DNA of 64,000 bases, from positions 1-64,000 of IMG/VR virus record IMGVR_UViG_3300029305_001452; one strand, given 5' to 3'. The DNA comes from a virus. Lineage: Duplodnaviria; Caudoviricetes. The notes below the pieces were generated by a model that saw only the letters and a list, made by a program, of their open reading frames with translations, had not been told where the DNA came from and did no database searches. This document shows, in pieces, positions 32,010 through 55,036 of the stretch. How positions within the stretch are numbered: position 1 is the first letter of the stretch; every line of letters starts with the position of its first letter. The translations under genes were made by a program, and so were the position numbers.

Positions 32010-32032
32010 ACTTACCTCTTAAAACTCTATTT

Positions 32033-32239
32033 TTATTGCTTATTATATTCGTATCCATACACAACTTTTAATGTGTTAATCATATAATCTGTGTATGAGG
32101 GATATTCTCCTTTATCTAATCGTGCAATAATTCGTTCTTTAGATGCCAAAGAATAATCATCATCACCGTGACCAGCAAGACAAAAATCACCACACGCACA
32201 AACACAACATTCACCACTGCAATCACTAAACATCTTCAT
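32033..32239 (-). CDS. Cys-rich hypothetical protein
   Basis: CSGECCVCACGDFCLAGHGDDD; AAGAGG RBS. Confidence 0.6.
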   Translation of the reverse strand: MKMFSDCSGECCVCACGDFCLAGHGDDDYSLASKERIIARLDKGEYPSYTDYMINTLKVVYGYEYNKQ

Positions 32240-32264
32240 ATTGTTACCTCTTAAAATTTTATTT

Positions 32265-32483
32265 TTATTCGCAATTAGCGGCAGCAGTTATTTCATCAAC
32301 ATTTAGTTTACACTGCTCGTCAATCCACTTGCTAACTCTTGTAGCACAGGCAACACAAAGTTGCTTTTCGTCATCATAATACTTCTTGAAGTTAACAACA
32401 CCATAATGATTAAAATTAACATTCACTCCGTCAACATTAAAATCAATAGGCTTTTTACACATATCACAAGTAACTTTAATCAT
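32265..32483 (-). CDS. Zn-binding small protein
   Basis: CDMC..LCVAC. Confidence 0.6.
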   Translation of the reverse strand: MIKVTCDMCKKPIDFNVDGVNVNFNHYGVVNFKKYYDDEKQLCVACATRVSKWIDEQCKLNVDEITAAANCE

Positions 32484-32512
32484 ATATTCTCACCTCTTAA
32501 AAGTTTGTTTTA

Positions 32513-32821
32513 CTATTCAGACATCTTTTCATTCCACACATATACGGCATCATCAAGCTCTCTTGTATATACGGATTCACCGCACTCTTCACATTCTACA
32601 GAATACTCAAATGTTTCCACAAAAAACATCTCTTTAGTTTCTACATTCTTCTTTGCAATACCTTCTTGATAAATTTGAGGCAATGCACCACATTTACAAG
32701 GCAAAACCCAAGAACGCAAACTGATATGATGATTACAATTTGGACAATGAATCATTGAAGCCTTAGTTGTAATAAACATCTCTTTGCCACACATGGGACA
32801 ATAACCAATCTTCTTCTCCAT
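32513..32821 (-). CDS. Zn-ribbon protein with Lar-like C-terminal part
   Basis: CPMC..CPNC..PCKCG..CEECG..VWN. Confidence 0.55.
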   Translation of the reverse strand: MEKKIGYCPMCGKEMFITTKASMIHCPNCNHHISLRSWVLPCKCGALPQIYQEGIAKKNVETKEMFFVETFEYSVECEECGESVYTRELDDAVYVWNEKMSE

Positions 32822-32829
32822 AACTACCT

Positions 32830-33153
32830 CTAACAAATAATTAAATAACCAACTTGCTTGTTCTCCATTAGTTCTAATAATTCAGATAATCTATCGCACA
32901 ATTTATCATATGCAATATTTGAAAGATAACCTACACATTGCCTATAATCTCTATTGTTACTTTCGTCTATCTTGAATTTATCCAAACCAGTTTTAAACTC
33001 TTCAATCTTTTTCTTTGTTACTCTACCACTAAATTCGGTTATTTCTTTCCCGAAACACCGTCTGAATACGGGTTGGTATGCATACATACATTCTTCATAG
33101 AAAATACTTTCTTCGTCTGTCTTTCTATGCTTGCCGATAAAACCATATCCCAT
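32830..33153 (-). CDS. Hypothetical protein
   Basis: AAGAGG RBS before MGYGF. Confidence 0.55.
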   Translation of the reverse strand: MGYGFIGKHRKTDEESIFYEECMYAYQPVFRRCFGKEITEFSGRVTKKKIEEFKTGLDKFKIDESNNRDYRQCVGYLSNIAYDKLCDRLSELLELMENKQVGYLIIC

Positions 33154-33178
33154 AAAACCACCTCTTAAAAGTTTGTTT

Positions 33179-33523
33179 TTATGTGTACTTTCCAGACCTT
33201 GCAACAGATGCCATGTTACCCTTTGAAACATCTTCCATAAACTTATCACTATAGTCTACAGAATAAGCAAATCTACCAGCAAAATATACGAAGCACTTTT
33301 TGCTGCCATCAATCGGAATAAAGACATAGGTTCTTGCAGTTGTCATTGCTTGACCGCCTATGCCTCCAAATCCCAAAGCAGTGCTTCCCCAAACTTGTTC
33401 AAAAGTATACATATCAAAGTCATTTATTGTTTGTCTTGGATTTTCTTTATAGTTAAATCTAAACGGCAAGTCTGCTTCAATGGAAAGAGCCTCTAGCGCC
33501 ATTTGTGTAAGTTTATTACTCAT
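33179..33523 (-). CDS. Hypothetical protein
   Basis: F.Q.WGSTALGFGGIGGQAMT motif. Confidence 0.65.
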   Translation of the reverse strand: MSNKLTQMALEALSIEADLPFRFNYKENPRQTINDFDMYTFEQVWGSTALGFGGIGGQAMTTARTYVFIPIDGSKKCFVYFAGRFAYSVDYSDKFMEDVSKGNMASVARSGKYT

Positions 33524-33540
33524 ATATAATACCTCTCATA

Positions 33541-33843
33541 TTAATTTCCCCATCTAATTTCCAACCAAGATGTTAAGGCACCATGATTATTACCTTCCTC
33601 TTTTACTGTAAATCCTTGCTTCTCGAAATATTCTTTTAACTCCATCATATACTCATATGTCATGAAGCTTTCTCGTAGTGTCTTTGTATAAATAACCTTG
33701 CTGCCACGCTTAGCTTCTCGCTTTATGTCTTTACATAGTTGCTTAATATATTTGCGTCTCATTTTTTCTAGTTTTCTTTCATGCTCTTGTAGATACTTTC
33801 TGGCAGCATCTACGTTGATAACAATACTATTAACTTCAAACAT
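33541..33843 (-). CDS. Hypothetical protein
   Basis: C-terminal GF.V..LEIRW pattern. Confidence 0.6.
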   Translation of the reverse strand: MFEVNSIVINVDAARKYLQEHERKLEKMRRKYIKQLCKDIKREAKRGSKVIYTKTLRESFMTYEYMMELKEYFEKQGFTVKEEGNNHGALTSWLEIRWGN

Positions 33844-33847
33844 TATA

Positions 33848-34351
33848 TTACCACCTCTCAAAATACTCGCTCAAATATTCAGTTGGGCCAAGTGCAATTT
33901 CCTTGTGGCTGATGCCGGTTTCAAAACATTCACCAATCCACTGATCCCAATTATTATACATAGCATCTGGACCACAACCACTTTCGCCACGCTTGTCTCT
34001 GATGAAGCAACGACCAACCCATTCGGCCTTACAACTAGACATAGGATATACAATTGTAAAATCAATACCTTCCTTATCAAGCGCCTCTCTAACAGATGCG
34101 TGGCTACTTACAAAGATACAATCATACTTACCAATGTTTTCTTTAATATGTTTAATATAGTTATCTGGGAAGTCTGGGTTGCGAACTCTACGAAATCCTC
34201 TAAACACATCCCCATTTTCATCTATGTTAGTAAGTACCCAACTAAATTGACTACTATCGGAGTCAAGAATCTTTAAGCCATACTTTTCTTGATTTTCATA
34301 TAAATATGTCTTGCCACAGGCAGGGAAGACGCTATAAATTTTTGTATTCAT
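33848..34351 (-). CDS. P-loop kinase-like protein
   Basis: SVFPACGKT Walker A; DSDSS.FSW, FP.NYI, FVSSH. Confidence 0.7.
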   Translation of the reverse strand: MNTKIYSVFPACGKTYLYENQEKYGLKILDSDSSQFSWVLTNIDENGDVFRGFRRVRNPDFPDNYIKHIKENIGKYDCIFVSSHASVREALDKEGIDFTIVYPMSSCKAEWVGRCFIRDKRGESGCGPDAMYNNWDQWIGECFETGISHKEIALGPTEYLSEYFERW

Positions 34352-34362
34352 ATAACTACCTC

Positions 34363-34647
34363 TTAATATGTTTTTTCTGCTTCAAAATACATTGTATTAT
34401 AATCGCTGTCTCCGCTTTCTTTTACATATTCATCAAACTTTTTTCTCAAACAAGCCTTAGAACATATATCAAAGTGCTCAATGCTTTCACAACTGTCGTT
34501 GCCCCAGTCATGATGTCCTGTAGTAAGCTCCCAGTATCCATTATTTTCAATTATGCCGTCGCAAACATCACAATGCAGCGTTTCTTTTACACAAACTCTT
34601 TCTGTGACAGTATGTGTTTTAACTTCATATTCTCTTTTAATGCTCAT
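34363..34647 (-). CDS. Hypothetical protein
   Basis: CDVC..HHDWGNDS..ICS..C. Confidence 0.6.
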   Translation of the reverse strand: MSIKREYEVKTHTVTERVCVKETLHCDVCDGIIENNGYWELTTGHHDWGNDSCESIEHFDICSKACLRKKFDEYVKESGDSDYNTMYFEAEKTY

Positions 34648-34658
34648 ATTTACACCTC

Positions 34659-34949
34659 TTAAAATTTATCCTTACACTCAGGACAGTAGTCCTTATCACC
34701 ATCTACATGGTGAACCCAGCCTGCAGCCTTAGCCTTGTCAAGCGCCTCGTTGTGACTATCTGCATGCGGACTATGCTTTCCGCAGCCGTCACACTTTCTA
34801 TAATGTTGTCTAACAGTTTTAGGAAAACTCAAAAATAAAATTGAAAATAGCGCAATCCACCATCTATTAAATCCCATAGCTAGGAGTGTAAAACAAACAA
34901 CGCTAATCATATTGTAAATGGCGCAAGCCCAAATAGTATTTTTATTCAT
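34659..34949 (-). CDS. Membrane protein with Zn ribbon
   Basis: Two hydrophobic segments; CDGC..GW..YCPEC. Confidence 0.6.
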   Translation of the reverse strand: MNKNTIWACAIYNMISVVCFTLLAMGFNRWWIALFSILFLSFPKTVRQHYRKCDGCGKHSPHADSHNEALDKAKAAGWVHHVDGDKDYCPECKDKF

Positions 34950-35220
34950 TTATATCACCATCCATTCTAGACCCACAATCAGGACAGTATCTCATCCAGC
35001 TATCATAGTCCCATACATTTCTAGTTGTGCGATGGCAATGCTGGCAAGTGCCGCTACCGTCTTTATTAAACTTCCATGAGCTATGATTTATCTCAGCCCA
35101 TTTTGTGCGGTCTTTAAAATCTTCGCAACCAAACTCATTCAAATAATCTTCGTCACCGGATACACTGTTTTCAATAATCACACATACTTCATAATGTAAA
35201 CAATCTTTACAAGTAGTCAT
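34942..35220 (-). CDS. Zn-ribbon protein
   Basis: CKDCLHYEVC..CQHC..YCPDCGSRMD. Confidence 0.6.
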   Translation of the reverse strand: MTTCKDCLHYEVCVIIENSVSGDEDYLNEFGCEDFKDRTKWAEINHSSWKFNKDGSGTCQHCHRTTRNVWDYDSWMRYCPDCGSRMDGDINE

Positions 35221-35224
35221 TATA

Positions 35225-35551
35225 TTAAATTTCACCATCCATCTTTGCACCACAGAACGGACACACCTTGAATCGTGCTTTCCAGTATTCCCGGTCATGA
35301 GATTCGATCTTGAACACTTCCTCACAATGAGAACAATCAATGCTCTTGTAAATAATTCTTCCAGTTTTGGGATCTACCGCACATCCATCTTCCCAATGTG
35401 CGTGTACCACTTCCACGGCATCCACGGTGGGAAGAGAGTTAAACCATTCTTCCACACACCATAAGTCTGTCGAGCAACCAAATCCACATTCTATGTCTTG
35501 TATATTTGCTTTATTGGCGTCAATAAATCTAATTCCATTTGTCATCTTCAC
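35225..35551 (-). CDS. Zn-ribbon protein
   Basis: RFIDA..PTVDAVEVVHAHW..CSHC..CPFCGAKMD, a common clostridial phage family. Confidence 0.65.
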   Translation of the reverse strand: MKMTNGIRFIDANKANIQDIECGFGCSTDLWCVEEWFNSLPTVDAVEVVHAHWEDGCAVDPKTGRIIYKSIDCSHCEEVFKIESHDREYWKARFKVCPFCGAKMDGEI

Positions 35552-35707
35552 TCACCACTCAACTACAAAGTCATCCACTTCTTCTACAGTTTCAATTCCA
35601 TACTCACAGAAAGCATAGTCTTCATCGTCAAACTTTTCACGCGCCTCTTCCTCGTCGTCTGCATCAACATAGGCAAACCCTCCAAATATAATCTTAAATC
35701 TTGCCAT
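35552..35707 (-). CDS. Small acidic protein
   Basis: MARFKIIFGGFAYVDADDEEEAREKF..; below the ORF-track cutoff. Confidence 0.55.
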   Translation of the reverse strand: MARFKIIFGGFAYVDADDEEEAREKFDDEDYAFCEYGIETVEEVDDFVVEW

Positions 35708-35718
35708 ATTCTGTCCTC

Positions 35719-35892
35719 TCAATCCAAATCAAAACGTTCATTAGCCATAACTACGGACACAATTTCATCTGCAAACTCTTCATCTGTCATTTCAACTAGG
35801 TCAAGCATAATGTTGCAAAGAGTCATAACGGTGTCCTCTACTGTGTGACCAGATGTGAATTGCTTAATTGCATCAATCATTTCATAATACAT
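35719..35892 (-). CDS. Small acidic protein
   Basis: AAGGAG RBS; MYYEMIDAIKQF..; below the ORF-track cutoff. Confidence 0.55.
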   Translation of the reverse strand: MYYEMIDAIKQFTSGHTVEDTVMTLCNIMLDLVEMTDEEFADEIVSVVMANERFDLD

Positions 35893-35928
35893 AATTAATT
35901 CTCCTTACCTCTTAAAATATGTTTTTTA

Positions 35929-36201
35929 TTAGTACTTATCTTTAACAAATACTTGACCGCACTTCGTACAATAATAAAATGTTTTGTCTTTTATTGATTC
36001 TCCGTATTTGCGACTTCCCCAAGCATTAGAATTATGCGAAATTCCGTTGTCATAATATAACTCTTCTAATTCGTGCTTGCAATTACCATGCTTTTCCAAT
36101 GCCTCAACTGCCATCTTCGCATAGCTCGTTACTGGCTCACTAAAAATATCATGTGTAATTCCATATTTAAAATGATTAATTGCGTCATTTATGTCTGTCA
36201 T
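35929..36201 (-). CDS. Hypothetical protein
   Basis: MAVEALEK..CKH..CTKCG. Confidence 0.6.
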   Translation of the reverse strand: MTDINDAINHFKYGITHDIFSEPVTSYAKMAVEALEKHGNCKHELEELYYDNGISHNSNAWGSRKYGESIKDKTFYYCTKCGQVFVKDKY

Positions 36202-36671
36202 TCTTCTACCTCAATAGGCTCTTTCTTCTTTAGTGCAATAGGTCTTACAGTATCTCTAATAACATCTTCAACCGTATCAGAAATAGTATTAGAAACCTTA
36301 GCGACTTCTTCCTTAACTTCAAGGAGTAACCTGGTATTATCCTCTAACACGGAACCAAAGCATTCACTCAGATTCAGCTCAGAAAAAACACTCTGTAGCT
36401 GCTTAAGTTCTAGAATCCGGCGCTTGATGTCAGTCTGTAGCTCGGTAATAAAAATCTCTTTTGCAATCTGATGGTTCTCATTATTGAAGTCAAATTCATA
36501 GCGCTCCATATAGTCGTTAGCAAATGCAACCTTGCCATTATCCATATAGATATAAGTACCCCTATTAGAGCTACCTTTATTGTTTACCTTATCTTTAATT
36601 GAAACTGCATAAATTAGTTTGCCGTAGCGAATAATCATAGTTTCGTTGTATTTCTTTTCACACTTGCTCAT
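36198..36671 (-). CDS. Hypothetical protein
   Basis: AAAGGA RBS; 157 aa. Confidence 0.6.
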   Translation of the reverse strand: MSKCEKKYNETMIIRYGKLIYAVSIKDKVNNKGSSNRGTYIYMDNGKVAFANDYMERYEFDFNNENHQIAKEIFITELQTDIKRRILELKQLQSVFSELNLSECFGSVLEDNTRLLLEVKEEVAKVSNTISDTVEDVIRDTVRPIALKKKEPIEVEE

Positions 36672-36757
36672 TCAACATTATCCTTTCTTGTCTCGTCTAA
36701 AAATACCCTAAAAATCAATAGTAATTTAAATTTTAATAGAGTAGGGTATATAAGTTA

Positions 36758-36961
36758 TCATTCCAAATCTTCGTCCTCAAAATCGTCCATATTCTCACTA
36801 TTTTTTCTAACAGGCTTCAATTCGTCGTTTTCTTCCTTGCCCATACGATATCGCCACAGAGGACAATTTTCTGCGGGGCATCTACGCACCTCAGCCATAT
36901 TACCGCCACAACAGTCGATGCACTTTAGACGGATTGCCTTAGATCTACTAATTCGCTCCAT
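36758..36961 (-). CDS. Small Cys-rich conserved phage protein
   Basis: KAIRLKCIDCCGG..EVRRC....CPLWRYRMG. Confidence 0.65.
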   Translation of the reverse strand: MERISRSKAIRLKCIDCCGGNMAEVRRCPAENCPLWRYRMGKEENDELKPVRKNSENMDDFEDEDLE

Positions 36962-36963
36962 AA

Positions 36964-37266
36964 TTAACCCCCATAAACCTTTACTTTAGTATGAGCGTTC
37001 TGCTTAATACAAAACTCAATTGCCTCTTCCTTATCTGTGAACAGCTGATCAAAATCACAAAATGGAATTTGCTCACCGTTATCTAAGGTAACGCCATAAA
37101 CACCAGTTACCCATATACCAGTCACGACACACACGGTAACAACCCACTTTGAGTTCTTTTTCCACCACTTCTTTTTATGTGCATAATAAACTACTTGGTT
37201 ACACCTAAAAGGAACGGTATATTTAAGATTACCATCAAGCTCGTGCATTATAATTGTCCATCCCAT
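36964..37266 (-). CDS. Hypothetical protein
   Basis: GAGGAG RBS; LF..KEEA motif. Confidence 0.6.
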   Translation of the reverse strand: MGWTIIMHELDGNLKYTVPFRCNQVVYYAHKKKWWKKNSKWVVTVCVVTGIWVTGVYGVTLDNGEQIPFCDFDQLFTDKEEAIEFCIKQNAHTKVKVYGG

Positions 37267-37309
37267 ATTATAAACTCCTCGTCGTTTTAATACAATTCAT
37301 TTTGTATTG

Positions 37310-37507
37310 TTAACGGCTTTCACGCCAGTAACAAATAAGCAAATATACAATTGCAATCAAGATTAGTGCAATGTTAATCCACAGAGGGATTAGTACTACC
37401 CACCAAGACCAGGCAATTAGGTTGAGCAGCTTCAGCACTATAAAGATAATTTGTAGTACGCCAAGTATGCCCATGCCGCCACTTGCTCTGCTATTAGATT
37501 TCTTCAT
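37310..37507 (-). CDS. Small two-helix membrane protein
   Basis: GGMGILGVLQIIFIVLKL..I.WSWWVVLIPLWI. Confidence 0.7.
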   Translation of the reverse strand: MKKSNSRASGGMGILGVLQIIFIVLKLLNLIAWSWWVVLIPLWINIALILIAIVYLLICYWRESR

Positions 37508-37522
37508 ATCTTATTCCCCTCA

Positions 37523-37789
37523 TTAATATGCACTAAATGTTACTTCAATCTTGCAATTGAAGATGTCCTTAAGCATCTGCTTCATCTCGGCCATCATACC
37601 CTTACAATATGCAGATGTTCTACCTTCAGTCTGATAAGTTGCCATTAGGCTACCATCTGCGGCATATCCTAAATTAAAATAAACACCATGCTCATCAGCA
37701 AAGTCACAGATTGGATTTGCCATCTGTGCGATTGTTGTCTCGTCTGTAAGCTTGGTATGGATTCTTACATCTTGTCTTCCGTACGTCAT
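37523..37789 (-). CDS. Hypothetical protein, first gene after the leftward promoter
   Basis: AAAGGAG RBS. Confidence 0.65.
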   Translation of the reverse strand: MTYGRQDVRIHTKLTDETTIAQMANPICDFADEHGVYFNLGYAADGSLMATYQTEGRTSAYCKGMMAEMKQMLKDIFNCKIEVTFSAY

Positions 37790-37828
37790 ATTTTTGTTGC
37801 TCCTTTGTATTAATTTTGTACCGTTGGA

Positions 37829-37857
37829 ATTATATCATAAAATCCACAATTTGTCAA
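37829..37857 (-). promoter_or_regulatory. Consensus sigma-A promoter (extended -10)
   Basis: TTGACA-17 nt-TATAAT with TGn. Confidence 0.85.
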
Positions 37858-37862
37858 GAGGG

Positions 37863-37988
37863 TGGTATTAAGTTTATACTAGTATAAAAATGATACTAGG
37901 GGTAGTATAAAAATGATACTAAAAATAGTATAAAAATGATACTACATAATATATAATAATATATAAATTAAAATATAAATATATATAA
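37863..37988. repeat. Palindromic iteron/operator array plus AT-rich tract
   Basis: TAGTATAAAAATGATACTA at 37880, 37903, 37926 (23-bp period), variant at 37863, then about 40 nt of almost pure A/T. Confidence 0.85.
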
Positions 37989-38026
37989 GGCTCGCTAAAA
38001 GCTCGCAACGGGGGATTAGGCTTCGC

Positions 38027-38374
38027 CTACGGATCGCTTGCTTCGCTACTTGGGTCTTTGTCTTGCTTCGCATCTTTGGACAATATCTTTTGGACATCAA
38101 CATAGATGTTGCCTTTTTCGTCTAGCTGGATATAACCCTTGTCCTCTAGTTGCTTGCGCACTTTATAATAATTATTTGGCTGGGATATCCCGGTCATTTT
38201 TTGCATATACGCTGTACTTGGGGAGAATGACCCATCGCCTTTACAACCTAGTAGAGTTAGGAGGACTTTTGCCTCGTTACCGCCTAATTGATTATTTATA
38301 GCCGAGAATAGATTGCTTGGGTATACCATAAAGCTTTTTGGTTTATCTTCTTTGTCATGGAAAACCTGGGGCAT
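38027..38374 (-). CDS. Winged-helix DNA-binding protein (replication-initiator-like N-terminal domain)
   Basis: L...EAKVLLTL..FSPS...M.KMTGIS..N.YKVRKQLEDKGYI. Confidence 0.65.
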   Translation of the reverse strand: MPQVFHDKEDKPKSFMVYPSNLFSAINNQLGGNEAKVLLTLLGCKGDGSFSPSTAYMQKMTGISQPNNYYKVRKQLEDKGYIQLDEKGNIYVDVQKILSKDAKQDKDPSSEASDP

Positions 38375-38409
38375 TTGAATCCTCCTTTCATTAATTTTGT
38401 GTCGCTTGG

Positions 38410-38438
38410 ATTATACTACATTTTTTTAGATTTGTCAA
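38410..38438 (-). promoter_or_regulatory. Consensus sigma-A promoter
   Basis: TTGACA-17 nt-TATAAT; same CCCTCTTGACAAAT context as the 37857 promoter. Confidence 0.85.
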
Positions 38439-39037
38439 GAGGGGTGATTTATTGTGTCACTTTTGACTTTTTTTGGTTGAAAGCACCCCCTGGGCGGTAC
38501 ATTTAATAAGGGTTTGCTTTTGGGTTTTATGGTTTGGTTATTTAGGATGGGTTTATTTACCTACTAACCTAGTAGGTTAATAGGATGATATTAGATTTGC
38601 CTATTGGTTTGGTAGGCAATTGTTGGTGGTTTTATGGTTTGATTGTAAATGTTTACGGTTTTTGGAGGGTTTTTATATGGATTTTTAGGGCTTTATATTT
38701 TAATAAGGTATTGTTTGGAATTAACCGATGGTTTTGGAGTTTTATGAAGATAGGTTGTTTTATTAAGGTATTGTTTGGAAATTGGGGAGTTTGGGGATTT
38801 GGTGGTGGTTTTGATGGGTATTTAGTTGGATTTTTATTTATGTTTTAATTGTGGGGAAGTGCCGGTGTTTTGGGTGAAACTTTGTTTTTGCAGTCAGTGT
38901 GGAAATATACCACATGTGGGGAAATTCACGAAAAACACAAGATATTGTGGTTTTAAGTACCCCCATGGCACAAAATATTGGGATCAAATCAAAACTTTGC
39001 AAAATATGTATTTTCAAAAGTTTTTAGAAATTTGGTG

Positions 39038-39065
39038 TTGACTTTGAGGATTTTTTTGTTATTGT
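39038..39065 (+). promoter_or_regulatory. Candidate rightward early promoter
   Basis: TTGACT-16 nt-TATTGT with TGn, upstream of the first plus-strand gene. Confidence 0.4.
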
Positions 39066-39145
39066 CAAATCACACCAAAGGCAAAAAGGTCTTTGGTGAA
39101 TAAATATCACGCCGTGTACACACACGAGCATATGGAGGTAATCGT

Positions 39146-39574
39146 ATGAAAACTAACACTATGGACGCACGCATCAAGGAACTGATGGCTATGGGAGCTA
39201 CTTTCGCAGAGGCACACAAAGCCGCATTGGACGAGGCTGTTGCCTTCGGCAACGGCAAGGGCAAGAAGCCGACTGGCAAGGCTGCACCGGAACTCGTAGA
39301 GTTCCGCAAGAAGAACGGCGAAGTCAAGATGGTCAGCCCTAAGCAAGCAGCCGTGTGGGAAGCTGCACGCAACCGTAGCAACGGCAAGACTCTTGACGAA
39401 GTCAAGGCTGAATGGGAGGCTAAGCACAAGGCTTTCAAGCCTAGCAAGGAGCTGATTGCAGCCCTTAAGGCGAACCCGATCATGACTCGCAAAGAGGCTA
39501 AAGCCTACGGCTTTATCGGCACTAAGGACGAGTTCAAGGCTCTGAAAATCAAGCACAACGTGTACGCTAAGTAA
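39146..39574 (+). CDS. Lys/Ala-rich basic protein, first rightward gene
   Basis: GGAGG RBS; strongly biased GC-rich codons; followed by a terminator. Confidence 0.8.
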   Translation: MKTNTMDARIKELMAMGATFAEAHKAALDEAVAFGNGKGKKPTGKAAPELVEFRKKNGEVKMVSPKQAAVWEAARNRSNGKTLDEVKAEWEAKHKAFKPSKELIAALKANPIMTRKEAKAYGFIGTKDEFKALKIKHNVYAK

Positions 39575-39587
39575 CACCTAACCACCT

Positions 39588-39625
39588 ATACCCCTCACCC
39601 CTCGTGGGTGGGGGGTATTTTTTTT
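39588..39625 (+). terminator. Intrinsic terminator
   Basis: ATACCCCTCACCC/GGGTGGGGGGTAT hairpin plus T8. Confidence 0.8.
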
Positions 39626-39714
39626 GCGAACGGGTAATCCCCACAAACCACACTCACCCACACACATACACACATAGACCGTCACCTATAGGATCCACGA
39701 AAGGAGTAACCACA

Positions 39715-39801
39715 ATGCTAGACACCGTAATCATCATAACCTGCACACTCATAACTCTCGGTACTTACATCTACCTGAAAGCCACCAAGGTTATTTGGTG
39801 A
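39715..39801 (+). CDS. 28-aa single-helix membrane peptide
   Basis: AAGGAG RBS; MLDTVIIITCTLITLGTYIYLKATKVIW. Confidence 0.55.
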   Translation: MLDTVIIITCTLITLGTYIYLKATKVIW

Positions 39802-39902
39802 GCATACAGACCAAGCCCTTGAGCCACCACGGTTCGAGGGTTTTACTGTGTGCTTACACACATATCTTACGGCTGACGAGCCTTAAACGTAGGAGGGATC
39901 CA

Positions 39903-40205: not shown

Positions 40206-40295
40206 GCATAGAGCCAGCGGACATCACTTCGGTGGTGTCCGTCACTGTGTGCTTAACAAAAACTATACTCGCACACGAACAAGGAGGAATTAACC

Positions 40296-40607: not shown

Positions 40608-40615
40608 CCACAATA

Positions 40616-40648: not shown

Positions 40649-40670
40649 ATGTCTGTTAGGAGGAGTAACT

Positions 40671-41279: not shown

Positions 41280-41284
41280 CAACA

Positions 41285-42170: not shown

Positions 42171-42189
42171 GCGAAAGGAGGGAAATGAA

Positions 42190-46890: not shown

Positions 46891-46913
46891 GTTTTCTAAA
46901 ACAGAAAGGAGAA

Positions 46914-47870: not shown

Positions 47871-47915
47871 GGGGCGTTTATGCCCCTAAAACGAATTAAG
47901 TGAGGTGAAAAACAA

Positions 47916-48248
47916 ATGCCTTATAAAAGCGAAAAGATAAAGCTTGACCCAAGCCAAGATCGTCGTAGAAAGCTGACGGAAGAACAGAAAAAAGAAATCC
48001 GTAGGATTTACAAAACGGGTGTATGTGGCACAAGACCGTTAGCAAAGCAGTTTGGTGTGAGTCGTTCAACTATTCAAGTAATTGTCAACCCAAGTATAGC
48101 CGAAAGGCATAAGAAAAGAATGAAAGAGCATTGGAGGGATTATAAGCCGTCAAAAGAAGAGTGGGCAGCCACAATGAGAGAGCATCGTCACTATAAGCAA
48201 GAACTATATCTCAAGGGAGAACTTAACACTAATAATACGGAGGATTAA
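47916..48248 (+). CDS. HTH DNA-binding protein
   Basis: KLTEEQKKEIR..LAKQFGVSRSTIQ. Confidence 0.75.
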   Translation: MPYKSEKIKLDPSQDRRRKLTEEQKKEIRRIYKTGVCGTRPLAKQFGVSRSTIQVIVNPSIAERHKKRMKEHWRDYKPSKEEWAATMREHRHYKQELYLKGELNTNNTED

Positions 48249-48250
48249 AA

Positions 48251-49039
48251 ATGCAAGTTTTATTGAGAGCGTATAACGGTGAATGTTATGTTTGGAAGCA
48301 GGCAAAATTCAACGGACTTAGATTTGTTGTGGAAAATAATCCAGTACCATATGAGCGGATTGTTTCTGTGCAAAACGATAATAGAAAAAATTATCTTTTG
48401 TGTCCGAGTTGCTTTGAGGTTGTTAAGAGAGATCCGAAAAAGATTGCTCAACATAAAAAGGGACACAACAATTGGAAGAAGTGTCTTACATGTGAATACT
48501 TTTACCCCAATTGTGTGGAAACAATTTCTCGGAAAACCGTAATGAATAAAGATGGCTCGTATACACACAAAGAAATTCACAAGGTTGTACCTCAATGTAC
48601 ATCTAACTCCTATTGGAGTTATGCCAATATTGGTACAGAAGATGCAGAAGGCAAATGTAAATATTGCAACTGTGCAACCACAGAATTACAGGATATTCAC
48701 GACATCTTTACGGATCAGCCAGGTGTGTTCGACGACATTATTACTGTCGATAAGGTTATTGACGCTGGATATACTACAAAATCGAAGTTTAGTGCCTCGT
48801 GTTATGGATACAGGCTAAATGGTCAGAACGACATTGAGGCAATAGTTAACGGCATTAACATTGTTGACCACTTTATTGTAAGGGTATGTGGTAAAAAGTA
48901 TAGGGTGTTTTATTCTAAAAAATACGACAAGCTGTATTGGGCAAACGATGAAGGCAAATATGTAGTATTCAATGGTCGTAACGCCGGTGCAATTGCGTAT
49001 GTCGAAATCAAAGAGCAAATTTCCAAACTGTATAACTAA
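48251..49039 (+). CDS. Cys-rich hypothetical protein
   Basis: GGAGG RBS; several CxxC. Confidence 0.65.
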   Translation: MQVLLRAYNGECYVWKQAKFNGLRFVVENNPVPYERIVSVQNDNRKNYLLCPSCFEVVKRDPKKIAQHKKGHNNWKKCLTCEYFYPNCVETISRKTVMNKDGSYTHKEIHKVVPQCTSNSYWSYANIGTEDAEGKCKYCNCATTELQDIHDIFTDQPGVFDDIITVDKVIDAGYTTKSKFSASCYGYRLNGQNDIEAIVNGINIVDHFIVRVCGKKYRVFYSKKYDKLYWANDEGKYVVFNGRNAGAIAYVEIKEQISKLYN

Positions 49040-49055
49040 ACGGAGGTAAACAAAT

Positions 49056-50363
49056 ATGCAGAAGACAGATTTAAGGGAAAAATGGGGTTGTTATTGTGAC
49101 ACCGATAAACTGGTGGACGATGTTATGGCATTGTTGTCTAGATATCATCATACAAACACAGAACACGGAGTTTGTGTAATGCTAAATGAGTATTTTGAGC
49201 ACAAGCAACCCCTCATTGATATGTTCGAGAAATCTAAAACATATATTGGCGATATGAGAATTGTCATAGATGTAGAGCTTGAAAGAACGATTGATGGGCG
49301 CGAGTTAAGAAATTTCTGTAATAATTTTCCCGCAGATGTAAACGCTGAACATGTATTTTTAAAGTTTACTGACGAAAACGGAAAGACACTTCAAGACTAT
49401 TTGAAAGTGGGAGTTGGAGGATTTAAAGCAAAAGATCTCAGAAATATCGATCTTGTTACAAAACTCAAAGCGTGTGCGGAAAATCAAGGGAAGTTTCATG
49501 CAGACGGATGTACAAAAGAATCCTATGGTAAATTTATAGACTTCGGTGATATGATTTGTTCTTTCGGATATAACCCCGCGTCTACACTGAACGACGAACT
49601 TGCTAATTGTTTGACACAAGCCAAAATTAATGCTACATTTGTACGGGGAATGAAAACAAGTCGTGCGTTTAATCGTTTCTGTGCCGCATATGGTGTAGAT
49701 AAACTGCCGAACTATAATAAGCTATTTGCCCAGTATGCAGACATGGTGTCTGGTCTGAAACGGAAAATGAAGTTTTATATCAGCCTAAATCCCTTGGATT
49801 ATCTGACAATGAGTTTCGGTAACTCTTGGGCGAGCTGTCATACAATCGATAAGAGAAACGAGCGGCGTATGCCTAATGATTATGAGGGCATGTACTGCGG
49901 TGGCACCATGTCCTATATGTTGGATAGCACCTCTATCATCACATATGTGCACAACAATGCAACAACAGATGTTGAGGTTGGTAAGATTTACAGAAATATG
50001 TTCCACTATAACGAGGGAACTTTAATTCAGGGCAGAATCTATCCTCAGGGAAATGATGGCGCAACGGATTTGTATCAAACCTTTAGAGAGGTTGTACAGG
50101 AAGAGTTCTCTAAATTGCTGAATTTGCAGAACAACTCTTGGATTAAGAGAACCTGTGGTTGTCATGACAATGCACTAACTTGTGGTGTGCATTACGAAGA
50201 CTACTTCCATTATTCTGGATGTAATGTGTCTTATCCTAGAGAAATGCCTCTTGCTGGTAGCCATGTTGTAAACATTGGCAGTCAGAGAGTTTGCCCCAAG
50301 TGTGGAGAATATATCTCTGACGGTTATAACAGAGGCAGATTAGTACACGATTATTGTGAATAA
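49056..50363 (+). CDS. Paralogue of 45316..46890 (SWASCH-motif protein)
   Basis: SLNPLDYLTMSFGNSWASCHTIDK, GTMSYMLD, R.MFHY, GRIYPQ shared. Confidence 0.75.
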   Translation: MQKTDLREKWGCYCDTDKLVDDVMALLSRYHHTNTEHGVCVMLNEYFEHKQPLIDMFEKSKTYIGDMRIVIDVELERTIDGRELRNFCNNFPADVNAEHVFLKFTDENGKTLQDYLKVGVGGFKAKDLRNIDLVTKLKACAENQGKFHADGCTKESYGKFIDFGDMICSFGYNPASTLNDELANCLTQAKINATFVRGMKTSRAFNRFCAAYGVDKLPNYNKLFAQYADMVSGLKRKMKFYISLNPLDYLTMSFGNSWASCHTIDKRNERRMPNDYEGMYCGGTMSYMLDSTSIITYVHNNATTDVEVGKIYRNMFHYNEGTLIQGRIYPQGNDGATDLYQTFREVVQEEFSKLLNLQNNSWIKRTCGCHDNALTCGVHYEDYFHYSGCNVSYPREMPLAGSHVVNIGSQRVCPKCGEYISDGYNRGRLVHDYCE

Positions 50364-50382
50364 TTATTAAGGAGGAATAAAT

Positions 50383-50793
50383 ATGAGCGTATCAAGAGTC
50401 GACAAAAAGAAAGAAGCCATAAAAAGAATGGAGGTGTTAGACATCTATTCAGAAACTATAAGGCAATTCGAGTATGAGGGTCTTATAAGTTATAGTGAGC
50501 CACCGCTTGGTACAAACTACTGGCTGACAGAAGAGCGAAGAGAGATCGTGAAGAAGTTTGAAGAAGAACATAACGCACTTGTATACTTCGCAGCTACTTC
50601 TTATACGGAGTTTGGTAGATTGGATGCGTTCTTATATGTGTCCGACTACGAGGATGAATGGAAGGAAGACATGGAATATCTGAAAGATGGATATGTATAC
50701 GCATATGTATACAACTATGACTGTCCTGAGTTTTCTGAAATTGGTCTTGTAAGAGTTCAGCCGAGATTTGGCGGACTTGTAAGAATTGGTTAA
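50383..50793 (+). CDS. Conserved hypothetical phage protein
   Basis: FEEEHNALVY..LYVS....EW..YAYVYN..SEIG. Confidence 0.7.
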   Translation: MSVSRVDKKKEAIKRMEVLDIYSETIRQFEYEGLISYSEPPLGTNYWLTEERREIVKKFEEEHNALVYFAATSYTEFGRLDAFLYVSDYEDEWKEDMEYLKDGYVYAYVYNYDCPEFSEIGLVRVQPRFGGLVRIG

Positions 50794-50826
50794 ACAATAC
50801 AAAATTAATAATTGGAGGTATGTGTT

Positions 50827-51363
50827 ATGTCAATCGAAAAAATCAGAGAGTTAAACAAAATCGCAACACAAATGGAGGAGATGAAATCTAAAGCAATCAG
50901 AGAAGTTACTGATGGAAAAGAGTTAAGAATCCAGGCGTTAAAGAAAATCCAAGCATATCTTAAAGAACTTAGCAAGGCAACTGAGGGGTGTTGTTGGACA
51001 GCAGAAACTCCTATCACAATCTATTGGTTGGTCAAGCAATATGAAATTGGAACTAGATATCATAAAACAGGTGTATGTTTTAGATTCCGTTCAGATGGAA
51101 CTGTAAATATTGAACAGCCAGCAGCAGCATCTAGTTTGAGAATTACAAACTTCACAAATTTAACGGAGTTTGGAAGAGTATATCAAGACAGCACTTTCCG
51201 CTGGGAAGATGGCATGGTTGAACTCATCGACAAATGGAAAGAAATCAAGCCGTATATTGAGGAAGCTGCTGAAAAAGCTATGCTTGAACGCATGACAAAG
51301 GCACAAGAAGAGCTTGCAAATTTCAAGGCAAGTTATGAAAACATAGCAAATTTTGAAGTGTAA
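50827..51363 (+). CDS. Hypothetical coiled-coil protein
   Basis: GGAGG RBS before MSIEK. Confidence 0.65.
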   Translation: MSIEKIRELNKIATQMEEMKSKAIREVTDGKELRIQALKKIQAYLKELSKATEGCCWTAETPITIYWLVKQYEIGTRYHKTGVCFRFRSDGTVNIEQPAAASSLRITNFTNLTEFGRVYQDSTFRWEDGMVELIDKWKEIKPYIEEAAEKAMLERMTKAQEELANFKASYENIANFEV

Positions 51364-51379
51364 TAAGGAGGTAAGCATT

Positions 51380-52027
51380 ATGAAAAAGAAAATTTATGTA
51401 TGTCCTAATTGTGGTAGAGCATTAAATTTCTCCGAAGATGCAAATTACACTTTCTACTGTGGTGATTGTGGAGATTATTTCCACGAATATGAGGCAGCAA
51501 CGGAAGAACAGGCTAGAATGGAGGGGATTGTAGACTATACTGATCTTGCCAAGGCGTCTATGGAAATCAAAGCAATCACAGACAAGGCAATTAAAGAAAA
51601 TGAAAGGCAGGTTGAAATCAAGAGCAAAGATATTCTTGGGCAGGTTCTTGAATATATCAGTGAAACTATTCAGCCTATCTTAGATTCTGGAATGTATAAA
51701 GAACCGAAATTTATAGATTGTGCTAGAATTTACACTAGCAATTTTGAGCTTAGTTTTGGTAGATATATTCCAAACAACAAGGAACATCAAGCACAATTAT
51801 TCGGACGAAATGGAAATTTGCGTGTTTATTTCCATATTACCGATAGGTATTTGATTGATAATGTGGTTACCGGAGTTACTCCTTATCTTGTTCAAGATTG
51901 GCAAAAGTTAAAGGATTCTATGCACAGAATGATTCCTTATGCAATCGATGAGTGCAACAAGGCAAACCAAAAGAAACTCGAACAGCAAAGAGAAAAAGAA
52001 CAAATCATCAACAGTTTCAGACTGTAA
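51380..52027 (+). CDS. Zn-ribbon plus coiled-coil hypothetical protein
   Basis: AAGGAGG RBS; CPNC..CGDC. Confidence 0.65.
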   Translation: MKKKIYVCPNCGRALNFSEDANYTFYCGDCGDYFHEYEAATEEQARMEGIVDYTDLAKASMEIKAITDKAIKENERQVEIKSKDILGQVLEYISETIQPILDSGMYKEPKFIDCARIYTSNFELSFGRYIPNNKEHQAQLFGRNGNLRVYFHITDRYLIDNVVTGVTPYLVQDWQKLKDSMHRMIPYAIDECNKANQKKLEQQREKEQIINSFRL

Positions 52028-52045
52028 TACAAGGAGGTAAATATT

Positions 52046-52633
52046 ATGGCAAGTATTAACGGAATTACAGTAAAGGCAATCAAGCAGTTTAGGGGTCACG
52101 AGGGTGAACCCCTATACCAAGGAAATGTGTATCTTGGCAACAAGAAAATTGGATGGTGGTCACAGGATTCTCACGGTGGTTGCGATAACATCTGCCTTGA
52201 CAAGCCGTATAGAGTCAGAAAGCTCGAAGAAAAAGTAAAAATGCTCAACCGAGATAAAGAAAAAACATATTCTAGAGGTGACGGTAGCAAATATACCATC
52301 GACTATTCTCTAGATATTATGTTTGGAGAGCTGATGGTGATGTACACAGACGAAAAAATGTTTAAGAGTGCCATCAAAAACGGATACGCTGGATTACTTC
52401 TTGTAACCGATGGATATCATGCATTTGGTCTGTACTTAAATAGAGAAATCGTTGGATTGCCTAATGAAGTTGTTTGCATGAAGCTTTCCAAGCTGATTGA
52501 AGACGGCAAAAAGAAATATGGGTTCTACAAGGAAAGCGACTTTACCAAGCATGAAATTAAAGTCTATCGTAGTCTTGATGATTTTAACATCGGCACACAA
52601 ATTAAACTTGAAGATGTAATGGAGGATAAATAA
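52046..52633 (+). CDS. Hypothetical protein
   Basis: MASINGITVK..F.GHEG..GNVY..QDSHGG. Confidence 0.7.
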   Translation: MASINGITVKAIKQFRGHEGEPLYQGNVYLGNKKIGWWSQDSHGGCDNICLDKPYRVRKLEEKVKMLNRDKEKTYSRGDGSKYTIDYSLDIMFGELMVMYTDEKMFKSAIKNGYAGLLLVTDGYHAFGLYLNREIVGLPNEVVCMKLSKLIEDGKKKYGFYKESDFTKHEIKVYRSLDDFNIGTQIKLEDVMEDK

Positions 52634-52634
52634 T

Positions 52635-53003
52635 ATGGGTTACGAAAGCAAGTTGTATGTAGTAGAAAAGGCAAATAGATATATGAATGAGGATATGAGA
52701 TATTGCCAAGTGATTGCGATGTTTGATCTTTGCAAATTCTATCCGTTATCTTGCAATATCAGCCATTACCCCAAAACAGAATGCTACTTCTATGCTGATG
52801 ATGGAAATACAAAGGTTTTAGAAGACAAATATGGCGAACCGTTGAAGGAAATTCCTATCGAGGATGTGATTGATATTCTCGAAGAAAATCTTTATAACGG
52901 AAGTGATTATAGAAGAATCTATCCCATACTTTCTATGTTGAAAGAATTCGAGCGTAAAAAGAACCAATGGGGTGAACTTGCCGTATTACATTACGGATAT
53001 TAA
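52635..53003 (+). CDS. Hypothetical protein
   Basis: MGYESKLY..LHYGY; GGAGG RBS. Confidence 0.7.
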   Translation: MGYESKLYVVEKANRYMNEDMRYCQVIAMFDLCKFYPLSCNISHYPKTECYFYADDGNTKVLEDKYGEPLKEIPIEDVIDILEENLYNGSDYRRIYPILSMLKEFERKKNQWGELAVLHYGY

Positions 53004-53056
53004 ATAATATAAAATTAAGCTGACCTATCGGCTATACGGGGAGAAAGGAAAACATT

Positions 53057-53347
53057 ATGACCAACAAAGAATTCCAAACCAAACTCCAGGCTCTGTACGA
53101 TAAACATCCGATGATTGCAAAAAGTGAAAAGAAAACCGTAAACGAACTTTTCTATGTGCTTCGTATGGACAAGGAAAACGACTACAACATCAATGTAATT
53201 GACAGAGGTTTTGTTTCTAGTATTGTATCTGTAAAGGAATGTTTTATTCCTGTGAGGCTTCTTATGAAGCATGTGAAAAAGGTAGAATGTGACGAAGAAG
53301 ATTATGGTTGCAAGGAAATTTGTCTTACACTTGTAACAGAAAAGTAA
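53057..53347 (+). CDS. Hypothetical protein
   Basis: AAAGGA RBS. Confidence 0.6.
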   Translation: MTNKEFQTKLQALYDKHPMIAKSEKKTVNELFYVLRMDKENDYNINVIDRGFVSSIVSVKECFIPVRLLMKHVKKVECDEEDYGCKEICLTLVTEK

Positions 53348-53360
53348 GGGAGGAAGATTT

Positions 53361-53729
53361 ATGATTCAAAACATTAAATTCATCAACAGAATTACAGACG
53401 AAATCAACAGAGAAAAGGTTATACTTGGTGACTGTGTTTACTATGTACTAGGTAATGGAAACAGAGTTAAAGCATACTGTGAGGAGCAGGGTGTGAGAAT
53501 GGAAGTTATTAACAGAAAGGAGGGTAAGGTAGACGGTGTGTGGTTGCCGTTTAGGAATTATTTCCAACCTACACAATGTAGCTCCGGCGCTCCTATGTGG
53601 TATCAGCACATTGATCATGGTAAATGGTATTTCTCTCAAACATATACACATGTGCTGCCTAAGGCAAGTGACTACAAGAATTTGGCAAATGCTATGGAAA
53701 CATATATAAGGATGTTTGATTCTCGTTAA
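53361..53729 (+). CDS. Hypothetical protein
   Basis: GGAGG RBS. Confidence 0.65.
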   Translation: MIQNIKFINRITDEINREKVILGDCVYYVLGNGNRVKAYCEEQGVRMEVINRKEGKVDGVWLPFRNYFQPTQCSSGAPMWYQHIDHGKWYFSQTYTHVLPKASDYKNLANAMETYIRMFDSR

Positions 53730-53743
53730 ATGGAGGGGTATAT

Positions 53744-54082
53744 ATGATGCACGAACAAGTAAGAAAACAACTTGAACATTTAAAGTATTGGGTGAATGCA
53801 GAGTCAAAATACGAAGAAGATTGTGAAAGGTGGGGAATTCCGTATACCCCATCAAGAAGAAAATGGGAAGATATTGAACTTTATGAAGAGTACAAGAGAG
53901 AAGTCGAAAAGAACGGCGATAAAAATCTTCTCGTTATGGTAAAGATGAACGGAGATGGTATGTATGGTGTATATCCGTTTGCAAGAAGATATGTGCATGA
54001 GCCTTATCTTGTGCATAGAACTGAACATGGTGCTGAGGTGTTGGTTAGAGAAGACGAAGTAAAAGTAGTAAAGGTGCATTAA
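53744..54082 (+). CDS. Hypothetical protein
   Basis: GGAGG RBS. Confidence 0.6.
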   Translation: MMHEQVRKQLEHLKYWVNAESKYEEDCERWGIPYTPSRRKWEDIELYEEYKREVEKNGDKNLLVMVKMNGDGMYGVYPFARRYVHEPYLVHRTEHGAEVLVREDEVKVVKVH

Positions 54083-54112
54083 AAGGATAATTTTATTATG
54101 GAGGATTTGATT

Positions 54113-54343
54113 ATGACAGTTAGAGAACTGATTGATATGTTGGAAAACTTTGATGATGATATGGAAGTTAGAATTGGTATGCAACAGACTTATGGTACTG
54201 ATTTTGCAATGAGTATCAGAGATGTTGAAGAATACAATGTAATGGCTTTCTATGGAGAAGATTACAAAGCCGTTGTAATCACAGAGGGTAGACAATGTGG
54301 TGCAGTTGATTATGACGGAGAGCATGACGATTGGGAAGATTAA
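54113..54343 (+). CDS. Hypothetical protein (MTVRELIDML type)
   Basis: GGAGG RBS. Confidence 0.65.
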   Translation: MTVRELIDMLENFDDDMEVRIGMQQTYGTDFAMSIRDVEEYNVMAFYGEDYKAVVITEGRQCGAVDYDGEHDDWED

Positions 54344-54368
54344 AAAGATAATTTTGTGAGGTGTGATT

Positions 54369-54533
54369 ATGTCTATAGAAGAATTTAAAACATATCTTGA
54401 TATGATTGTAGAGAAGGCTTTTAAGGAAGGTGTTCTTTATGAGCGGAACAGAAGAAAGTTTGGCTATGACGAAAATTGGATTGCAATGGAAATGGCTATT
54501 GACAATGCGAAGGTAAATATTCTTGGTGAATAA
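54369..54533 (+). CDS. Small hypothetical protein
   Basis: GAGGTG RBS; below the ORF-track cutoff. Confidence 0.5.
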   Translation: MSIEEFKTYLDMIVEKAFKEGVLYERNRRKFGYDENWIAMEMAIDNAKVNILGE

Positions 54534-54547
54534 GTGGGGGGTTTTAT

Positions 54548-54772
54548 ATGAGAGTTATTTCTACTACTGATTTGAGTGATTATGGAAACGATTGTTATAT
54601 CCATAAATCTGTAAGCCTTGTTGAAGATTTTGGAATGTACAATATCCTAACCGTAGAGAAGGTTGTTGGTTGGTGCGAAAGAGAACAGATGTACCTTATG
54701 GCTGATACTACTTGCAATTTTGATAAGGCAAAGTGGATATACAAGCAAAAGGGTGGCATTTTGGAAGAATAA
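54548..54772 (+). CDS. Hypothetical protein
   Basis: ORF in array. Confidence 0.6.
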   Translation: MRVISTTDLSDYGNDCYIHKSVSLVEDFGMYNILTVEKVVGWCEREQMYLMADTTCNFDKAKWIYKQKGGILEE

Positions 54773-54799
54773 AATGACGATTTTAATGGGGAAATATAT

Positions 54800-55000
54800 A
54801 TGATTAGATTAAATAGTGTTGGTATGGAAAGAATTGAGCAAATTCAAGATAAATACAGATTTAAAAACAATTTTGAACTTGAAGCACACGAAGTATATGA
54901 TTTTTGTAATGATATTATGAAAGCATATTATCTTGGGTTGTGTATGGACGAAGAAGATTTAGAGTTTGTAGAAATGGTGTTGGAAAAGATGTGTGAGTAA
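54800..55000 (+). CDS. Hypothetical protein
   Basis: ORF bounded by repeat sites. Confidence 0.6.
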   Translation: MIRLNSVGMERIEQIQDKYRFKNNFELEAHEVYDFCNDIMKAYYLGLCMDEEDLEFVEMVLEKMCE

Positions 55001-55036
55001 CCACATAAAAGAGTGATTTTAACGGAGGTTTTATAG

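Follow-up and report, generated by a model that had tools for sequence, protein, structure and literature searches.

A 16-bp palindrome with a private centre in each copy, between genes of an SPbeta-like phage: a probable joint for the exchange of gene modules

Introduction

Why does one short palindrome recur between the small genes of a large phage genome, and what keeps it there? The question is raised by the first 64,000 nucleotides (the window) of IMG/VR record IMGVR_UViG_3300029305_001452, a 139,972-bp phage genome in a single contig with 36% G+C. Genes of the window run leftward until about 38.4 kb and rightward beyond. Between them lies, at several junctions, a strict 16-base palindrome made of TAAAA, six free bases and TTTTA. 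An initial annotation had read these sites as cassette boundaries and had offered two explanations, an integron-like cassette system and operators of a repressor of the MrpR type. That modular phage genomes are joined at short linkers is an old idea. To our knowledge, such linkers have rarely been found. The phage is a distant SPbeta-like phage, and SPbeta and phi3T of Bacillus subtilis were compared with it. It is proposed here that the sites are probably an addressed junction element of double-stranded DNA and that modules are exchanged by crossovers inside the short island of identity that contains it.

Results

On the gene strand the unit reads stop codon/TAAAA, six bases, TTTTA, the ribosome-binding site (RBS) AGAGGT, five to nine bases and ATG. 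Seven exact sites were found, each at the position first reported for it. In the left cluster all sites are on the minus strand. The site at 32020-32035 has the gene-strand centre ATAGAG; its arm TAA is the stop codon of gene 32033-32239 and its right arm abuts the AGAGGT RBS of gene 31725-32009. The same centre was found in loci L037, L093 and L107, where the flanking genes are unrelated. At 32252-32267 (centre ATAAAA) the arm TAA is the stop of gene 32265-32483. This centre is common to six contigs besides the window, and a 26-nt island at the site is 100% identical to locus L001, between unrelated genes. The site at 33166-33181 (centre ACAAAC) supplies the stop of gene 33179-33523, and its centre recurs in L080, L093, L095, L108 and L118. 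About 21 nt are common to this site and a variant at 32498-32512, which has the 5-base centre CAAAC and lies 3 nt past the TAG stop of gene 32513-32821. At 35913-35928 (centre AACATA) the stop of gene 35929-36201 is directly upstream (TAA-TAAAA), and the same centre stands in the crossover island of the natural recombinant described below. Two further places had been called decayed copies. The first, at 34359-34377 and read directly in the sequence, is a degenerate copy of the AACATA site, presumably decayed, with left arm GAAAA and a shortened right arm; here gene 34363-34647 ends in the TAA of the RBS word. The second, at 34653-34670, consists of the right arm and the AGAGGT RBS without a left arm at six bases, and the stop of gene 34659-34949 lies inside TTT-TAA-GAGG.

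The right cluster is on the plus strand. The site at 54080-54095 (centre GGATAA) supplies the stop of gene 53744-54082. Because the next ATG is only 3 nt past the right arm, the word AAGGA, which resembles a Shine-Dalgarno (SD) sequence, falls inside the six-base centre, and palindrome and translation signals overlap completely (54080-54100). A variant at 54341-54356, with right arm TTTTG and centre AGATAA, supplies the stop of gene 54098-54343, and the site at 54770-54785 (centre TGACGA) that of gene 54548-54772. The last site, at 55006-55021 (centre GAGTGA), lies 5 nt past the stop of gene 54800-55000. The centre TGACGA also occurs in L014 and L062, in the same order relative to the site at 55006. 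It had been noted earlier that the arm TAA is the upstream stop codon in six cases (32020, 32252, 33166, 54080, 54770 and 54341) and that TTTTA abuts AGAGG throughout the left cluster, and both observations hold; at the three sites that do not supply the stop (35913, 32498 and 55006) it is 3-8 nt upstream. The window sites are mid-operon, far from two perfect promoters at 37.8 and 38.4 kb that lie upstream of the left-cluster array, and the gene strand from 31.5 to 38.6 kb is devoid of terminator-like sites.

The seven exact sites compare with 0.54 expected from shuffles of the window, none of which reached seven. In the whole genome there are 12 exact sites, against 0-6 for the other spacings from 0 to 14. 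The enrichment also stands against an AT-matched intergenic background: 15.2 kb of junction segments (64% AT) contain 11 sites, with 0.25 expected and a maximum of 3 in 1000 dinucleotide-preserving shuffles. In the same segments the reversed control has no site, other spacings give 0-3, and only the spacing of six bases is enriched. No palindrome was found in the 124 kb of coding sequence of this genome. The two arms are strongly coupled. Of 91 cases from 26 related loci in which TTTTA abuts an SD-like word, 78 have TAAAA exactly six bases further upstream, as have six of nine from this genome; at SD-like words without TTTTA it stands at that position in 2 of 154. The arm supplies the stop codon at 90 of 155 sites (58%) and does not at 42%, and the start codon follows 26-30 nt later. 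The 6-bp spacing is strict in this genome, in SPbeta and in phi3T. Among 168 distinct centres there is no palindromic one, where about 2.7 would be expected, a difference that is not significant.

A pattern scan detected dense clusters of the palindrome in large IMG/VR contigs. Bacillus phage SPbeta has 34 copies against 2 in the control and phi3T has 30, in both cases with a spacing of six only. Three whole records (G001-G003) contain 44, 54 and 57 sites, compared with 2-3 in the reversed control, and one complete relative (G004) has just nine. Eleven sites are present in 20 kb of L113, a contig that was picked up by one of its proteins and not by the motif. In a metagenome-assembled genome (MAG) from a host bin (G005), 101 sites were counted against 76, with the surplus within the phage contig and no excess in the remaining genome. 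The junction element appears to be common to all SPbeta-like phages, a property of the whole family.

Its surroundings differ between lineages. SPbeta sites lie 10-15 nt or more before the SD; three are between convergent genes, three between divergent genes, and copies are also found behind terminators, upstream of the aimR and yorE promoters. The SPbeta arms extend to about 11 bp per side, with about six further degenerate positions, giving a 28-bp site. Conservation in the window lineage is limited to 5-6 bp per arm; beyond them the sequence to the left varies freely, and to the right comes the SD. Each side of the extended SPbeta flanks matches a degenerate consensus and the two sides are no more complementary to each other than chance, which is the behaviour of protein half-sites and not of stems. 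Folding energies of the seven sites in the window are 0 to -1.8 kcal/mol with z of about 0, no better than those of shuffles. No compensatory changes were found in the arms of imperfect copies, in which mismatches are one-sided. A reading as RNA hairpin with covariation was ruled out by the missing compensatory changes, in arms and SPbeta flanks alike, and by the missing folding. The palindrome accordingly acts as double-stranded DNA and not as RNA.

Some SPbeta copies are placed differently. One (82017-82032) is inside the coding sequence of yopR (mrpR), and three or four more are within coding sequence (69795, 103854 and 111029, and 95563 by our own gene calls). At a collinear position (SPbeta 99498, phi3T 89340) both phages have the same palindrome with the centre reverse-complemented (TGATAA and TTATCA), and about 13 nt of similar flank become visible only when one copy is inverted. 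Either a small inversion or coincidence may account for this, with about 0.5 such cases expected.

The centres hold the most informative pattern. Identical centres form 161 cross-contig pairs, against 9 for reverse-complement centres, 8 for reversed centres and 10.6 for column-shuffled ones. In 149 same-centre pairs there is no protein homology on either side. Conversely, when protein homology is confined to the upstream gene the centre differs in nine of 12 cases, and when it is confined to the downstream gene in five of eight. Neither neighbouring gene, upstream or downstream, is linked to the centre. Sensitive comparison of the array DNA returned only collinear islands of 17-27 nt, and identity around shared centres drops to background at -2 and from +22. 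The order of shared centres is concordant in 56 comparisons and discordant in 6, and collinearity is complete in 32 of 35 locus pairs. The window centres AACATA, ACAAAC, ATAAAA and ATAGAG (left) and TGACGA and GAGTGA (right) recur elsewhere in the same order. SPbeta and phi3T have 22 centres in common, perfectly collinear, six with both flanks unrelated and six with one flank unrelated; our own estimate of the number of identical centres expected by chance is about 0.5 (1020 pairs x about 5e-4). The arrays themselves are extremely mosaic: in cluster A the sole conserved gene, 33848-34351, has different neighbours in eight loci. Since centres are unique within loci and are kept in order across related phages, the centre can be called a positional address. 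Among the loci examined a centre is repeated only in L104, where three palindromes with the centre TTGCTT recur with a 114-nt period as a tandem repeat.

Crossovers at the sites can be seen in several comparisons. In a natural three-way recombinant, L028 corresponds to L073 upstream (100%) and to L088 downstream (99%). A 24-nt island, made of the site and seven further bases, is all that the three loci have in common, and the switch is confined to it. In L113 two copies of a gene of 379 aa (3739-4921 and 7168-8355), about 90% identical, occupy two slots; their homology begins at the right arm of the upstream palindrome, ends at the left arm of the downstream one and extends no further, and all four centres differ. 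Between SPbeta and phi3T, homology blocks end at 11 of 30 site-bearing junctions and at 21 of 173 others (odds ratio 4.2, P=0.002), and several breakpoints are exactly at the edge of a site or within its right arm. The reading of the sites as cassette boundaries thus survives in the sense that homology between related phages starts and stops there, while the analogy to integrons that came with it does not. Three laboratory hybrids of phi3Ts and SPbeta were also mapped (bioRxiv 10.1101/2020.05.06.055103). Four ends of the long identical switch tracts in these hybrids are at most 7 nt from a site, and here too the sites stand out as historical boundaries. The hybrids did not use the sites, nor do they exclude them. 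The SPBRE sites, another repeated element of these phages, described below, which serves as operator of MrpR/YopR/SroF in SPbeta, were considered as a comparator for homology-driven joints and were unusable, as phi3T has another type of operator.

Several observations weigh against a role of the palindrome in exchange. With 12 sites among the roughly 200 junctions of the genome, the element is dispensable at most junctions. Many of the locus pairs are not independent, the contigs being related. The coincidence of boundaries and sites is partly forced, because mosaic boundaries are intergenic anyway and the site nearly fills the gap; and in SPbeta the site-bearing junctions are longer than the rest (median 104 vs 61 nt). 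Parent switches in the phi3Ts x SPbeta hybrids fall in long identical tracts or in site-free tracts of 21-87 bp, so ordinary homologous recombination suffices to make hybrids without the sites. Gene order is identical in near-identical copies of the window phage from four metagenome samples. Finally, a binder of the ParB/KorB type is absent.

Discussion

Our explanation starts from what can be observed directly, namely the position of the palindrome between genes, its strict spacing, its spread through the family, the conservation and order of the addresses, the sharp edges of the islands and one natural recombinant. On balance these favour an addressed junction element in double-stranded DNA, inside whose island modules are exchanged by crossovers. 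The element would consist of two invariant 5-bp inverted arms around a free 6-bp centre, placed between genes and, in the window lineage, fused to the upstream stop codon and the downstream RBS. The arms are most likely kept constant by the docking of a paired (dimeric) phage protein, and each centre would serve as the address of its junction. Related phages would swap gene modules via crossovers within the 16-24-bp island, the only sequence common to both partners, and exchange may require that the centres match. As an outcome genes would turn over, and the scaffold of addressed joints would persist.

How the crossovers are made is a further question, to which we see two answers, each of them tentative and less likely than not, with a sizeable share left to other mechanisms. 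The first, which we narrowly prefer, is natural cassette exchange. A phage tyrosine recombinase of the Xer type might bind the arms and exchange strands only between matching 6-bp centres. On the genome scale this might give a fixed scaffold of privately addressed slots, the contents of which are swapped between co-infecting phages; private ends for each slot would mean no deletions within a genome and slot-for-slot swaps between phages. The candidate enzyme is encoded at 61667-62641 on the plus strand. It is the only tyrosine recombinase gene of the genome, its catalytic R, K, HxxR, H and Y are all present, and its closest solved relatives are of the Xer type. As integration is served by a large serine recombinase, the tyrosine enzyme is left free and without an assigned role. 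With its inverted arms and 6-bp central region the palindrome is built like the core site of a tyrosine recombinase, the extended 28-bp site of SPbeta has the size of dif, and the arms of difH and difSL end in GAAAA/TTTTC beside the central region (PMC5357621). Heterospecific, address-conserved centres and sharp island edges would be expected of such a system, and the missing palindromic centres, although not significant, point the same way.

Against a centre-checking recombinase, the number of sites does not track the enzyme. G004, which encodes the closest homologue (43% identity), has nine sites, and G003, with only a distant relative of 344 aa, has 57. The window recombinase and its G004 homologue share the full catalytic set in alignment A1, whereas SPbeta YopP has Lys at the second catalytic Arg, and SPbeta and phi3T nevertheless show the address pattern. 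The substitution in yopP (SPbeta, L142, 78691-79767), an HxxK in alignment A1, is alignment-dependent. Five to six conserved base pairs per arm in the window lineage are short for a recombinase monomer. The recombinase gene is not beside any site, the nearest being 6.6 kb off. A gene present in two slots retains the local centres, which is not explained by centre-matched exchange alone, and the laboratory hybrids arose without need for sites.

The second answer is that the palindrome may serve to dock a phage protein with a regulatory or architectural role, such as a helix-turn-helix dimer of the 434 type, and that swaps pile up there by rare short-homology recombination. Such recombination would succeed only at the sites because they are the sole conserved stretch in hypervariable arrays. 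Annealing at short homologies is in our opinion as conceivable as a recombinase that checks centres, and just as provisional. Operators of 434 are contacted in two successive major grooves. The 5-6-5 layout with its free centre fits operators of this type, the SPbeta flanks match their consensus side by side like half-sites, and some SPbeta sites are just upstream of promoters (aimR, yorE). Precedent exists in the PeSL (promoter-early stem-loop) elements of T4-type phages, regulatory elements that act as shuffling joints (PMC2839356); an annealing protein of the Sak4 type is annotated in SPbeta-like phages, and hybrids form in real time by homologous recombination. On the other hand, 16-24 bp is very short for homologous recombination, and about 45 direct copies of another 16-mer are tolerated in the window phage without visible rearrangement. 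The window sites are mid-operon, far from the perfect promoters. On this second reading the centre would be neutral, yet centres are identical where all flanking genes have been replaced. No binder was found: ParB is absent, and the neighbouring proteins match no family.

It is highly improbable that there is no element at all and that the pattern is a by-product of tight packing, in which a TAA stop runs into a stretch of A and a U-rich tract precedes the RBS, or of translational coupling at the RNA level. It is true that the arm is often the stop codon (90 of 155 sites), that the start codon is 26-30 nt downstream and that the right arm always abuts the SD in this lineage. However, the arms are coupled at exactly six bases (78 of 91 vs 2 of 154), 42% of the sites do not supply the stop, RNA structure is absent and centres are conserved by address. 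Translational coupling is excluded as the function because SPbeta sites are distant from the SD (10-15 nt or more) and also lie between convergent and divergent genes. A composite of stop codon and RBS, tried as a null model, was ruled out by the coupling of the arms at SD-anchored words.

The two explanations first put forward fare worst, and for the roles that they give to the intact (61667) and the dead (62717) recombinase-fold gene the relevant evidence is neutral to negative. In one of them the palindromes are operators of a repressor of the MrpR/SroF type, namely the product of 62717-63634 (plus strand), a dead paralogue with recombinase fold and without the catalytic motifs, which has an MrpR N-terminal domain and 24% identity to the phi3T/SPbeta repressor. 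Such a repressor has the fold of enzymes that bind inverted arms, and two SPbeta sites are near MrpR peaks, upstream of aimR and yorE. Yet this is very unlikely. The SPBRE was recovered from sequences upstream of seven genes for which MrpR peaks are published (PMC10516654), and the element at these promoters was an oriented, non-palindromic 15-mer, 28-96 nt before the start codon and distinct from the palindrome. MrpR gave about 10 peaks and not 34 (PMC10516654), and the motif recognised by SroF has been described as long and non-palindromic (bioRxiv 10.1101/2025.11.27.690993). The phi3T repressor differs in specificity and the palindrome is the same. Moreover, the window phage has an oriented 16-mer of its own at its promoters.

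This 16-mer, ACAATACAAAATTAAT, has about 45 copies in the genome (at most 3 mismatches), almost always intergenic and always along transcription. The copies span the window from 6616 to 60505 (for example 20239, 23377, 25995, 37295, 50794 and 59089) and the rest of the genome. They stand immediately past a -10 box or directly between stop codon and RBS, and each of the two perfect sigma-A-type promoters (38438-38410 and 37857-37829) is followed by one. ACAATACAAAATTAAT is likely the counterpart of the SPBRE, either as operator of the MrpR-like protein (62717) or as a shared 5' leader.

The integron-like model, in which each small gene moves with its own site and the intact recombinase excises or inserts single-gene circles, is hardly credible, although the array genes are small, co-oriented and promoterless, a repeated site stands at their junctions and one gene does occupy two slots of one genome. 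It is excluded because the centre is tied to neither neighbouring gene, whereas an attC travels with its gene: the centre usually differs where one neighbour is homologous (nine of 12 upstream, five of eight downstream) and stays in place while genes change. In addition, the site is 16 bp long and does not fold, unlike the attC hairpins of 57-141 nt, the recombinase is closest to Xer, matches IntI4 weakly (1.5e-7) and is not beside the array, and gene order is the same in four samples.

Among known systems, the PeSLs of T4-type phages (PMC2839356) come near to the junction element. They too are short and conserved, stand in hyperplastic regions between small non-essential genes and bound insertions, deletions and replacements between related phages (PMC2839356). 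A PeSL, however, is a sigma-70 promoter with a terminator hairpin, tens of bases long, and PeSLs are mutually similar, recombine by homology and yield mini-circles (PMC2839356). The palindrome has 16 bp, no promoter or stable hairpin, and a private centre kept by position. With dif, difH and difSL (PMC5357621) it shares inverted arms around a 6-bp central region, with difH and difSL also the A4/T4 runs at the inner arm ends, and the window recombinase is itself Xer-like. As in the pdif sites of Acinetobacter plasmids (PMC6449649), exchangeable accessory-gene modules are flanked by sites. The arms of Xer core sites are about 11 bp and bind recombinase monomers, compared with five invariant base pairs in the palindrome and about six degenerate ones more per side in SPbeta. 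Unlike Xer core sites, the palindrome, a putative recombination site, has fully symmetric arms with 5-6 bp conserved in this lineage. The pdif modules alternate in XerC/XerD orientation and use host enzymes (PMC6449649), whereas the palindromes number tens, with differing centres in fixed order.

Engineered cassette exchange uses heterospecific lox/FRT sites, which have arms of 13 bp and spacers of 8 bp. As far as sequence patterns can tell, the likeness lies in constant arms combined with spacers that react when they match and do not when they differ, so that slot-for-slot swaps of a cassette flanked by two unlike sites can take place and cause no deletions. An attC is an imperfect palindrome of 57-141 nt which folds as single-stranded DNA and travels with its gene, with the integrase at the array. 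Arrays of small, co-oriented, promoterless genes with a repeated recombination-type site are common to both; the length, the folding, the gene linkage and the integrase at the array head are not, and the recombinase here is 6.6-30 kb from the arrays. The layout of 434-type operators, short inverted arms around a non-contacted centre of about 6 bp, fits as well; such operators lie at a promoter and have a cognate repressor, whereas the window sites are mid-operon and no cognate protein was found. With the SPBRE (PMC10516654), to which a protein with recombinase fold binds, it has in common that it is a repeated AT-rich intergenic element of the same phages. The SPBRE, in contrast, is oriented, non-palindromic, associated with promoters and present in about 10 copies, and the palindrome is separate from it. 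A literature search found no paper with the motif in a phage context, the only text match being an archaeal RbkR operator. The combination of a strict 16-bp palindrome, a private centre for each junction and a conserved order of centres is absent from PeSL, pdif/dif and lox/FRT.

A defined 16-bp element thus marks the joints across a phage family that includes the genetically tractable SPbeta and phi3T of Bacillus subtilis, and its addressed centres render the mechanism of modular exchange directly testable. If a centre-checking recombinase were at work, nature would have provided a new tool with which cassettes could be exchanged in an ordered, multiplexed way, and heterospecific lox/FRT exchange, an engineered system, would have its natural counterpart. 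An explanation would also be at hand for the turnover of accessory genes (defence, counter-defence, host takeover) in large temperate phages that keep their architecture.

Other features of the phage genome

The large serine recombinase is encoded at 117.6 kb. Pfam searches on the genes around the recombinase pair and the operon switch gave one match only, HTH_36 on 38027-38374. Near and distant DNA searches of the phage collection did not find a close relative of the window phage. Its nearest relative in the genome collection is a 160-kb contig binned with a Lachnospiraceae MAG, and the window stretch is present in animal faecal metagenomes. A group I intron lies at 6752-7071 of the window on the minus strand (Rfam RF00028, 74.9 bits, full model length). 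In a near-identical contig, in the part that corresponds to about 24-28 kb of the window, an open reading frame (ORF) of 223 aa for a GIY-YIG/NUMOD3 endonuclease lies between ORFs of 656 and 267 aa, which fits either an intron-borne or a free-standing homing endonuclease.

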